From the NCBI RefSeq assembly GCF_003334785.1, contig NZ_QOWV01000006.1: DNA of 64,000 nt; one strand, written 5' to 3'. Below, piece by piece: positions 3,177 through 5,212 of the stretch; position 1 is the stretch's first letter, and each line of letters begins with the position of its first letter. Below the pieces are notes generated by a model. The model had not been told where the DNA came from. It made no database searches and saw only the letters and a program-made list of their open reading frames with translations. The DNA comes from Escherichia coli. GTDB taxonomy: Bacteria; Pseudomonadota; Gammaproteobacteria; Enterobacterales; Enterobacteriaceae. The position numbers were made by a program, and so were the translations under genes.

Positions 3177-4781
3177 TTAATCAAACGAAAGACGCCGACG
3201 AGCACGGGATGCAGGCTTTACGACCGCCCGAGCCATCGCCTCACCAATTTCTGCACATGCCGTAAGTCCCTGAACGAAAGGCTGGTCGTGCATCAACCAG
3301 GGCAACGCGCCGAACGCTACGCGCCCACGAATATCTTCGGGTTGCTGTAACGTATAATCTTCGCCAACATCAGGGATTTCATCCCCTGTTTTCTGTAATT
3401 GCTCGCGTAGCCCAGGGAAAGGGATATCTTTCACTTTAAGCGGACGTTGTCCGCGGGCATCAATAAAAACGTCAAACGAGTAGCTGTTGTCTTCCGTTTT
3501 CAGGACGGTGCGCGACTCATTAATTTCCATTTTGTAGTCTTCACCGAGGGCGAGAATATGAATGATTCCCGCTTCACGTAAGGCAAGTAGGCGACGAATA
3601 GACTCTGAAGGGATTGCCGCATAATTATCGATGAAAACCCGGGCAAGGCCTTTACTGAACCGTTTATGGTCGTGTTCATTCAGATGTGGAACAATTTCCT
3701 GTACGGCTTCATGCAGGCGCAGAATGACATAACGCCAGGGAACAGTATGTTTTTCTCGTTTATTGCGTTCGACTTCCTGGAGATTTTTTTCTGCCCAGTC
3801 AAATGGGTCGCGTTGTTTGCGCTCGGCAAACCAGGCTTGAGCAAAGGAATCGACATTCAGGCTCTCTAAGGCTATGCGTTGACTCCAGTCTGGATCAGCA
3901 AACTTGATTTCCTCTACTATCAATCTAAATACCCGATCCAAAAGGCCCTCTTCGCCTTTTTGAATCTCAGCATTTAATGCCTGATCGGTGACGATGTGTA
4001 AGGGCTCGTAGGGAATAGGGCAATAGAAATCGGCTTCGGGTAAAATACCCGTGCGCGACAACAACGTGATATTTAGCTTTTCACTTGCGTTATCGCGGTG
4101 AAAAACGACGTGTTGTTTATCATCTTCAATGAACGAACCATGCTGAATAGCCACTGCCATTGCCGCATCCAGTCCGCTCAAGGATGTTCCCATAATACCC
4201 ACGTTACACGCATCGACCTTTGCTTCCATCAGGCCTGACCACGGGCTGGGAAAATACGTTCGGGTTGCTTCTTCTTCATCAGGCCAGACGTGACCCGTGG
4301 CGATCACCGCTAAATCAAACGTCTCGCTGGGTAAATCCTGATTTGTAGCGAGCATGACGCCAGCATTTGTAATTTGCAGATCGGTAACCTGGCATGATTC
4401 ATAAACAGCCACTGCAAATTTTTGCTGTCGTGCCTGGTCTACTAGTCGTAAAAATTGATCGCGGAAATATTCGCCCAGCAGAATTCGCGGTAAAAACTGA
4501 CGATCGTGCAAGGTTTCTTTTTTAACGCCATAACGCTGGAGATGGCTGTCTTCTTGCTTTTGTAGCCATTCGAGATACGTACAATAAATCGGCGGTATTT
4601 CAATACTGGCAATATTTGCCAGCATCATTTTTGAGTTTTCCTCATCACTGTATGGCATCCCGACACCGGCCTCGTCAGCCTGCTCGAAGATAGAAATAGA
4701 AAGTGGAGTTTGTTGCTGTAGAAGCGAGAATAAGGTGTAGATCCCCGTAGGCCCGGCACCCACAATAGCAATTTTTTTCAT
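3177..4781 (-). CDS. ydhS: FAD/NAD(P)-binding protein YdhS
   Basis: 534-aa ORF; N-terminal GxGxxG dinucleotide motif (IVGAGPTG); matches ydhS. Confidence 0.85.
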   Translation of the reverse strand: MKKIAIVGAGPTGIYTLFSLLQQQTPLSISIFEQADEAGVGMPYSDEENSKMMLANIASIEIPPIYCTYLEWLQKQEDSHLQRYGVKKETLHDRQFLPRILLGEYFRDQFLRLVDQARQQKFAVAVYESCQVTDLQITNAGVMLATNQDLPSETFDLAVIATGHVWPDEEEATRTYFPSPWSGLMEAKVDACNVGIMGTSLSGLDAAMAVAIQHGSFIEDDKQHVVFHRDNASEKLNITLLSRTGILPEADFYCPIPYEPLHIVTDQALNAEIQKGEEGLLDRVFRLIVEEIKFADPDWSQRIALESLNVDSFAQAWFAERKQRDPFDWAEKNLQEVERNKREKHTVPWRYVILRLHEAVQEIVPHLNEHDHKRFSKGLARVFIDNYAAIPSESIRRLLALREAGIIHILALGEDYKMEINESRTVLKTEDNSYSFDVFIDARGQRPLKVKDIPFPGLREQLQKTGDEIPDVGEDYTLQQPEDIRGRVAFGALPWLMHDQPFVQGLTACAEIGEAMARAVVKPASRARRRLSFD

Positions 4782-4906
4782 TGTTACTTACCTGTACGCA
4801 TTCTTTCGAATTTAGTGTTATCAGATAAGTTTGGTTGAGATTTTTAGAATTTGAGAAATTTCAGACAGGGATGAAAAGGGCGCTAACCGCCCTTGATTAA
4901 ATTCTG

Positions 4907-5212
4907 TCAGGCGAGTTTTGCCTGATTGATTTGACTAAGTGGCTCATTGACATCGAAAACTTTGGCGACAACTTCCTCAACGCCGAGATTTTTCAGTCGG
5001 GCAGTATGTTTTTCCAGATAGGCAAGGGCGCTTTTTTCATCAGTGAAAAGGTAGATCCCACCGGCTTCGTGGTTCTTTTCACTTTCTGTCCATACCTTCC
5101 ACAGAAAACCAGGTTCCTGATTAATCGACTCAGCAAGTGGTTTAAGCTGCTCAGCCATTGCGTCGCCAAATGGGCCATTAAAAGCAAAATGAAGTTGTAA
5201 CAAAGTTGCCAT
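4907..5212 (-). CDS. ydhR: small putative monooxygenase-like protein YdhR
   Basis: 101-aa ORF matching ydhR in length and position next to the tRNA-Val pair. Confidence 0.85.

Follow-up and report, generated by a model that had tools for sequence, protein, structure and literature searches.

A question raised by ydhS and ydhR, two co-oriented neighbors on the Escherichia coli chromosome, is whether they work together and what kind of protein each of them encodes. Roughly one third of E. coli genes have no assigned function, and these two are among them. We addressed the question in a window of 64,000 nucleotides of E. coli DNA (contig NZ_QOWV01000006.1 of assembly GCF_003334785.1), by which we mean the whole stretch that was analyzed. 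An initial annotation, made from the sequence alone, had described YdhS as a protein that binds flavin adenine dinucleotide (FAD) and NAD(P) and YdhR as a small monooxygenase-like protein. We propose that YdhS is a single-component FAD/NAD(P)H class B flavoprotein monooxygenase of the PF13454 lineage, as predicted from its modeled fold, and that it is the orthologue of no characterized member of that lineage. The overall picture, in which ydhR and ydhS are independent transcription units and YdhS is such an enzyme made under stress, is one that we consider somewhat more likely than not.

The evidence for the assignment comes from family membership and from structure. YdhS constitutes its own orthologous group, the NCBIfam equivalog NF007381/PRK09897 (1117 bits), and residues 5-164 match the Pfam family PF13454 (NAD_binding_9; E = 5.2e-31). 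When YdhS was scored against 1.84 billion representative proteins, 987 relatives were recovered at E <= 1e-3, which makes a family of modest size. An alignment of 83 full-length members with 24-69% identity was used for all conservation counts, and PF13454 is matched by every one of them. The AlphaFold model of YdhS built from this alignment has a mean predicted local distance difference test score (pLDDT) of 95.0 and a predicted template modeling score (pTM) of 0.92. A Foldseek search of the PDB with the model returned the L-aspartate N-hydroxylase FzmM as the top match (8CP5 and 8CP2; E = 5e-23, TM 0.73); three ornithine hydroxylases, SidA, KtzI and PvdA, came next at about 1e-13. The structural match to FzmM extends over 477 aligned residues versus approximately 300-350 for the other structural matches, at an identity of 17-18%. 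At the level of sequence, the YdhS family profile found class B flavin-containing monooxygenases (FMOs) among PDB sequences at 1e-10 and FzmM at 1.3e-7 over residues 3-283. A profile restricted to residues 215-534 matched no PDB sequence, that of FzmM (8CP2) included, which indicates that the half that binds the substrate has changed too much to be recognized by sequence. Relatives of YdhS in the AlphaFold database carry the UniProt label 'HpyO/CreE-like FAD/NAD(P)-binding domain'. The initial annotation held that its view of YdhS as a protein without a function would fall with a confident assignment to a characterized enzyme family with a known substrate; the fold-level search that it had suggested supplies the family with confidence, namely the class B monooxygenase lineage of FzmM, CreE and PcxL, and does not give the substrate.

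In the model, YdhS has a three-domain architecture in which a helical substrate domain appears wedged between the N-terminal FAD domain and a second dinucleotide domain. The N-terminal GxGxxG motif that had been noted at the outset is GAGPTG at residues 8-13, and it is the sole canonical copy in the protein. Invariant among the aligned sequences are G8, G10, N56, R99, G103, G163, G198 and L201, and near-invariant are E33, E61 (81/83), T162 and H164 of an ATGH motif, S200, D205 (82/83) and S242. The second dinucleotide motif of YdhS reads G198-T-S-L-S-G-x-D205 (G198-[ST]-S-L-[ST]-[AG]-x-D205 across the family), and the domain that contains it is probably for NADPH. The next strand ends in S242-R243, which could bind the 2'-phosphate; R243 is present in 64 of the 83 sequences. 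No cysteine is conserved across the 83 family members.

If YdhS is such an enzyme, NADPH would reduce its FAD, and the reduced flavin would then react with O2 to form a C4a-hydroperoxyflavin. One oxygen atom would pass to a small soluble molecule, probably to a nucleophilic heteroatom and most likely to nitrogen, as in the nearest structural relatives, and uncoupling of the reaction would release some hydrogen peroxide (H2O2). Two features of the protein weigh against this scheme. The second dinucleotide motif is non-canonical, with GxSxSAxD in place of GxGxxG (the domain itself is present at the level of fold), and N56, which lies in the motif LANIASxE and is present in 83/83 sequences, was likened to the catalytic Asn62 of FzmM by position only. 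As regards the arginine cluster with which FzmM binds L-aspartate, the residue that follows the GxG motif in YdhS proteins is Thr or Ser and not Arg (compare Arg13 of FzmM), a mapping that is itself uncertain.

An alternative that deserves consideration is that the same scaffold serves an NAD(P)H-dependent reductase or oxidase, which would act on a disulfide, quinone or metal substrate or would form H2O2. We consider this unlikely, given that the closest structural match, well ahead of the others, is a genuine monooxygenase with the same extra helical substrate domain (477 versus approximately 300 aligned residues), and that an invariant Asn in the LANIAS motif occupies the place where class B enzymes hold a catalytic Asn, Asp or Glu, if the equivalence that we infer for it is correct (PMC10404684). 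Classical disulfide reductase chemistry is excluded by the lack of a conserved cysteine. It is also conceivable that YdhS remains within the PF13454 enzymes but is the direct orthologue of a characterized one, either an L-aspartate N-hydroxylase (FzmM/CreE; nitrosuccinate or nitrite) or a urate hydroxylase of the HpyO type. The shared Pfam domain, the position of FzmM as the closest solved structure, and the 'HpyO/CreE-like' label that UniProt gives to the relatives would all suit such an assignment, but we judge it very unlikely in view of the low identity to FzmM, the failure of residues 215-534 to match any PDB sequence, and the result that NCBIfam holds no significant match for YdhS besides its own specific equivalog. 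Moreover, CreE, FzmM and AlnM act with an adjacent lyase in biosynthetic clusters (PMC7347517), which is absent at YdhS, and the neighbors of YdhS homologues in 80 loci include no recurrent lyase-type or purine-catabolic gene. Within the window itself no nitrosuccinate lyase (CreD/FzmL) was found, although no explicit CreD query was run there or in the 80 loci. Because the substrate domain has diverged and the nitrosuccinate lyase partner is absent, L-aspartate is probably not the substrate of YdhS. The open-access literature that mentions ydhS assigns it no function, in agreement with the initial annotation, and we found no literature on the YdhS family under PF13454 or COG4529.

Does YdhR then belong to the same system? 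The two genes are adjacent, co-oriented and 125 nt apart, both proteins carry annotations of the oxidoreductase/monooxygenase type, and the pair is kept in 5395 of 5426 E. coli genomes. These observations would be expected of a two-gene module or operon in which, for example, YdhS supplies reducing power or an intermediate to YdhR. Comparison with other genomes argues otherwise. When YdhR was searched by tblastn against 89 YdhS loci, a match was obtained only in the Escherichia locus L014, a divergent lineage whose YdhS is 87% identical. The order in Enterobacter, Lelliottia and Shimwellia is mdtK, two tRNA-Val genes and ydhS, and the tRNA genes lie 120-200 nt from the 5' end of ydhS; these syntenic loci lack both ydhR and ydhQ and leave no space for ydhR. 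Homologues of YdhS with 64-70% identity are solitary, in unrelated surroundings, in Klebsiella oxytoca, Yersinia massiliensis, Pantoea allii and Citrobacter. Homologues of YdhR are likewise solitary, in three differing contexts, in Citrobacter rodentium, Raoultella and Neisseria, with no YdhS neighbor. Thus, as far as sequence comparison can tell, the adjacency of ydhR and ydhS is confined to Escherichia and the genes are no functional pair. The comparative context already largely refutes the operon or module, which we regard as highly improbable; also counting against it is what lies between the genes, namely a hairpin that is conserved and runs into a U-tract, an element resembling a promoter, and a sigma-S binding peak. 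The simplest history would be that ydhR was inserted next to the tRNA-Val pair in an ancestor of Escherichia, and the two genes would be single-gene transcription units that came to be neighbors within that lineage. A Northern analysis reported that ydhR is not co-transcribed with valV-valW (PMC2190699). The description of ydhS and ydhR as conserved enterobacterial genes was overstated, since ydhS is patchy in the Enterobacterales and occurs also in Alphaproteobacteria and ydhR has a small, scattered distribution; that both genes still lack a function stands.

The ydhR transcript would end at the hairpin between the genes, which had been recognized in the initial annotation and whose arms, AAGGGCG and CGCCCTT at 4876-4882 and 4888-4894, were confirmed to be exact. 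The stem is 7 bp long with five G-C pairs and a 5-nt loop, and it starts 12 nt past the ydhR stop codon. The 125-nt spacer folds at -26.1 kcal/mol versus -16.1 +/- 2.95 for shuffled sequences (z = -3.4), and the hairpin is the dominant stem. Both arms are unchanged in L014 while three loop bases differ, which is the pattern expected of a selected stem. A generic terminator scan that required 5 T in 8 made no call at the hairpin, which speaks against termination there; the scan missed it because the U-tract is short (UUUU-CAU, with four U, two of them within the stem). The hairpin is a probable intrinsic terminator of ydhR, of moderate strength.

The spacer probably also holds a promoter of the sigma-S type that belongs to ydhS alone. 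For a promoter comparison, we took the 110 nt that precede ydhS in each of 36 Enterobacterales loci, where the gene lies in differing places and the sequences are otherwise unalignable. Of the 36 loci, 20 have the pattern C[CT]A[CAG][AG]CT[TCA] in this region, so that it accompanies the gene across genera; shuffled sequences gave 2.4 +/- 1.5 and the reverse strand gave 1. Besides the element of this locus (Table 1), examples from other loci are TCTACACT, CTACGCTT and CCACACTTA. This -10-like element resembles what we take to be the extended sigma-S -10 consensus, KCTAYRCTTAA. Genomic systematic evolution of ligands by exponential enrichment (SELEX) placed a peak of the sigma-S holoenzyme in the ydhR-ydhS spacer (PMC5493296). 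Several points weigh against the promoter as we read it. The pattern was set post hoc, after the sequences had been inspected, so that its statistics are optimistic; the SELEX peak is weak, with an intensity of 3.8 (PMC5493296); and a consensus scan of the spacer turned up no promoter of the sigma-70 type.

Published expression data bear on the same matter. The genes otsB, sra, ybaY, ymdF, fbaB and ecnB are canonical sigma-S genes. Following treatment with a LolCDE inhibitor, ydhS was up 7.3-fold and 14-fold and was tabled with these six (PMC5105897). Exposure to beef microbiota raised ydhS 2-fold in two strains of enterohemorrhagic E. coli (PMC5543532), and AZT lowered it 16-fold (PMC11228462).

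Two further observations concern the region upstream of ydhS. An 11-nt palindrome, TTATC-T-GATAA (4818-4828, minus strand), takes in the final three bases of the candidate -10 element, extends downstream from it, and is kept in L014; it may be a candidate operator for some regulator. Small open reading frames (ORFs) were called on the same strand 200-270 nt upstream of ydhS homologues in Yersinia (L003, 5572-5799) and Pantoea (L005, 5563-5733). Their products of 75 and 56 aa have no Pfam match, and they may be spurious or may encode a leader or regulatory peptide.

A second line of evidence on when YdhS acts comes from its neighbors. YdhS-related loci were gathered with a 14-sequence alignment, and neighboring genes were clustered over 80 loci in segments of about 13 kb; most representative proteins of the family lie on contigs of 2-8 kb that are uninformative for context. 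The loci outside the Enterobacterales are mainly from Alphaproteobacteria (Paracoccus, Rhizobium, Erythrobacter, sphingomonads and Acetobacter), with a few from Gammaproteobacteria. Clustering of all neighbors in the 80 loci revealed no universal partner gene of YdhS homologues. A gene for the large-subunit catalase HPII (NF008422, E = 5e-282) lies within 6 kb of the YdhS homologue in 12 of the 80 loci, on the same strand in 12 of 12 cases, and the gap is only about 90-130 bp in three of them (L024, L031 and L051). Assuming one or two catalase genes per genome, a rough estimate of the co-occurrence expected in 80 segments of this size is less than 1. Additional neighbors include YciE/DUF892-like proteins close to YdhS homologues in 5 loci, a YghA-like short-chain dehydrogenase/reductase (SDR; NF004782) in 8 loci, Klebsiella included, an OxyR-KatG pair in L059, and a YgiW-type BOF protein in a Klebsiella locus.

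In our overall picture, YdhS would be produced in stationary phase or under general stress and would share a physiological module with catalase HPII, and the H2O2 from uncoupling of YdhS provides one rationale for a co-oriented catalase. A further possible interpretation is that YdhS-type flavoenzymes form an unrecognized arm of the proteobacterial general/stationary-phase stress response that is functionally coupled to catalase HPII. YdhS would then oxygenate a stress-related endogenous metabolite such as an amine, a polyamine or a thiol, and the catalase would either clear the H2O2 or share a protective pathway with YdhS. We put this further step forward as a tentative idea, possible rather than probable. 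The 12 catalase-linked loci, across several orders, amount to only about 8 independent arrangements, the linkage is found mostly in Alphaproteobacteria and in none of the clearly enterobacterial chromosomal loci, and deletion of ydhS in Klebsiella pneumoniae gave no lactic-acid phenotype (PMC11205318), all of which weigh against our overall picture. Alternatively, catalase and ydhS may merely belong to the same sigma-S/general stress regulon. The linkage of YdhS homologues to catalase HPII and the co-induction of ydhS with classic sigma-S genes in E. coli appear to be new. Useful leads, if only modestly novel, are that ydhR and ydhS are separate, that ydhS probably has a promoter of the sigma-S type, and that catalase HPII recurs in the same orientation as the YdhS homologue.

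Other neighbors were considered and set aside. A cluster of LysR-type genes found in 11 loci was rejected as a partner of YdhS because the positions were inconsistent and only the member in L059 has the OxyR motif GHCxRDQ. In nine Rhizobiaceae loci (L065, L070, L071, L073, L076, L077, L080, L085 and L088), a protein of approximately 246 aa that by eye is MOSC-like is encoded directly downstream of the YdhS homologue, at about 7660-8500; the gene is convergent with that of the homologue in most of these loci and runs in the same direction in L070. NCBIfam gave no match for this protein. MOSC enzymes reduce N-hydroxylated compounds, which would make such a neighbor an interesting foil for an N-hydroxylase. 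The taxa are closely related, however, and the arrangement was rejected as functional evidence because it is accounted for by synteny.

Phenotypes reported for ydhS are few. When ydhS is deleted, E. coli is killed less readily by the Agrobacterium type VI system, an effect that was complemented in trans (PMC7012810). YdhS, a predicted cytoplasmic protein, is cleaved by Prc in vitro (PMC7481392), and a P-to-Q substitution in YdhS arose in K. pneumoniae evolved in lactic acid (PMC11205318). An apparent mention of ydhS in PMC3521201 was rejected, since the string is the yield symbol Y_DHS. The gene is apparently decaying in some lineages: many Shigella entries are shortened to 366-435 aa, a shortened entry of 404 aa (P0019) represents 496 member sequences, and an IS1 transposase lies inside ydhS in one E. 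coli strain (5CRE51).

YdhR is a small barrel protein of the family PF08803 that is monooxygenase-like, with an activity that is putative. From its size, the initial annotation had suggested a cofactor-free monooxygenase or a stress-responsive barrel protein, and the monooxygenase-like barrel is corroborated by the match to PF08803, the 'putative mono-oxygenase ydhR' family (E = 4e-42), and by the structures 1WD6, 2ASY and 2HIQ, whose chains are matched over residues 1-101 at E of about 1e-64. YdhR also matches the NCBIfam equivalog NF008333/PRK11118. Its match to the antibiotic biosynthesis monooxygenase (ABM) profile PF03992 is not significant (E = 0.14, residues 16-49 only). According to the quotation in PMC3935937, the solution-structure paper grouped YdhR with ABM monooxygenases of the ActVA-Orf6/YgiN type. 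The link of YdhR to ABM proteins thus derives from a structural comparison in that paper and not from a sequence match. Uranyl exposure raises the YdhR protein approximately 3.4-fold, along with WrbA and SodB (PMC3935937), and plumbagin is reported to lower ydhR transcription (PMC8933826).

The layout of the locus is given in Table 1; the extent, shared orientation and sizes that the initial annotation gave for the two genes agree with the ORF list and the raw sequence. In the direction of transcription the order is ydhR, the spacer and ydhS. The segment 2900-5800 is present at 80% coverage or more in the 5395 genomes mentioned above, all 5426 being complete, and is annotated in them with ydhS, ydhR, ydhT, two tRNA-Val genes and ydhQ. 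ydhS and ydhR thus occupy an ordinary, already annotated locus, and the fold assignment refines database labels and overturns none.

Table 1. Features of the ydhS-ydhR locus, with positions counted from the first nucleotide of the window
Feature	Position	Strand	Remarks
ydhX, ydhU, ydhT		plus	convergent with ydhS
Gap between the convergent stops of ydhT (plus, ends 3165) and ydhS (minus, ends 3177)	3166..3176		11 nt
ydhS	3177..4781	minus	ORF list and raw sequence; ATG start; 534 aa; N-terminus MKKIAIVGAGPTGIY
Candidate ydhS ribosome-binding site AGGTAAG	4787..4793	minus	6-12 nt 5' of ATG; sequence reading; kept in L014
Candidate sigma-S-type extended -10 of a separate ydhS promoter, CCAAACTTA	4834..4826	minus	53 nt upstream of ydhS ATG
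Hairpin and short U-tract, probable intrinsic terminator of ydhR	4870..4894	minus	AAGGGCG-GUUAG-CGCCCUU-UUCAUC on coding strand
ydhR	4907..5212	minus	ORF list and raw sequence; ATG start; 101 aa
tRNA-Val(GAC), two copies	5320-5396 and 5401-5477	minus	ydhQ and mdtK lie beyond

Base composition varies along the locus. The GC content is approximately 44% in ydhR and 47% in ydhS, and it dips to 43-45% over ydhR and the tRNA-Val region (4501-5700) versus 51-54% in the flanking genes. The low GC content is consistent with ydhR as a later insertion beside the tRNA genes.

On the other side of ydhS, the gap to ydhT leaves no space for a terminator, and the two transcripts must therefore overlap at their 3' ends. 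RNA-seq coverage placed ydhS-ydhT among the overlapping convergent pairs termed 'excludons' (PMC12288877). Within the ydhS coding region, about 200 nt beyond the ydhT stop, the plus strand has a hairpin that resembles a terminator at 3371-3388 (CAGGGATTTCATCCCCTG, then TTTTCTG); from this placement, transcription of ydhX-U-T would enter ydhS in antisense.

The tRNA genes gave rise to two spurious signals. A plus-strand ORF of 62 aa at 5322-5510 carries the repeated peptide 'PTPTMSRWCSNQLSYxR', which is the antisense of both tRNA-Val genes, and it was rejected as a gene on that ground; the artifact recurs in the Enterobacter loci (cluster c11). The Rfam family RF02194 (HPnc0260, a Helicobacter 'antisense RNA') matches 5196-5358 on the plus strand with 112 bits versus a gathering score of 59, antisense to the start of ydhR and the 3' half of a tRNA-Val gene, and a weaker copy lies at 5400-5436. 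What is conserved in the RF02194 alignment corresponds, in reverse complement, to the acceptor and T arm of the tRNA; the remainder is A/U-rich. RF02194 is probably a family built on antisense-tRNA sequence, with no genuine small RNA at this site. A search for defense systems with PADLOC gave no matches.

For future work, ydhS and ydhR are best studied separately. The search for the role of YdhS is narrowed to a mechanistic class, the FzmM-type enzymes that hydroxylate heteroatoms with NADPH and O2, and its substrate might be sought under sigma-S or stationary-phase conditions, possibly in connection with peroxide metabolism. If the catalase link is functional, YdhS would be a new enzyme in the general stress response, and such a role might explain why loss of ydhS lowers susceptibility to type VI attack (PMC7012810).

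Comparison with known systems places both proteins more precisely. With the cofactor-free ABM monooxygenases (ActVA-Orf6 and YgiN; PF03992), YdhR has its small size in common, but it differs from them in sequence, the match to their profile not being significant, and in having no conserved gene partner. The FMOs (PF00743) are the best sequence-profile matches of the YdhS family in the PDB, and they have the FAD GxGxxG and the 'ATG' linker motif in common with it (FDLAVIATGH in YdhS). Unlike the FMOs, YdhS lacks the signature FxGxxxHxxx[YF] in a regular-expression search, and PF00743 is matched by only 1 of the 83 family members. The siderophore ornithine/lysine N-hydroxylases SidA, PvdA, KtzI and NbtG belong to PF13434, have a much smaller substrate domain (approximately 350 aligned residues versus 477 for FzmM), and are encoded in siderophore clusters, whereas YdhS is not. 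Relative to FzmM/CreE, YdhS is approximately 70 residues shorter, has a substrate domain with no detectable sequence similarity, and is encoded without a lyase partner or biosynthetic cluster, as a solitary chromosomal gene in Enterobacterales and Alphaproteobacteria. FzmM turns over at a kcat of approximately 7 per s, and its large helical domain is wedged between both dinucleotide-binding domains (PMC10404684); L-aspartate is met in its entry chamber by a cluster of Arg13, Arg276, Arg416 and Arg577 with Asn413. It is with FzmM/CreE (8CP2, 8CP5) and the 2-aminoethylphosphonate enzyme PcxL that YdhS has both the PF13454 domain and the three-domain layout in common.

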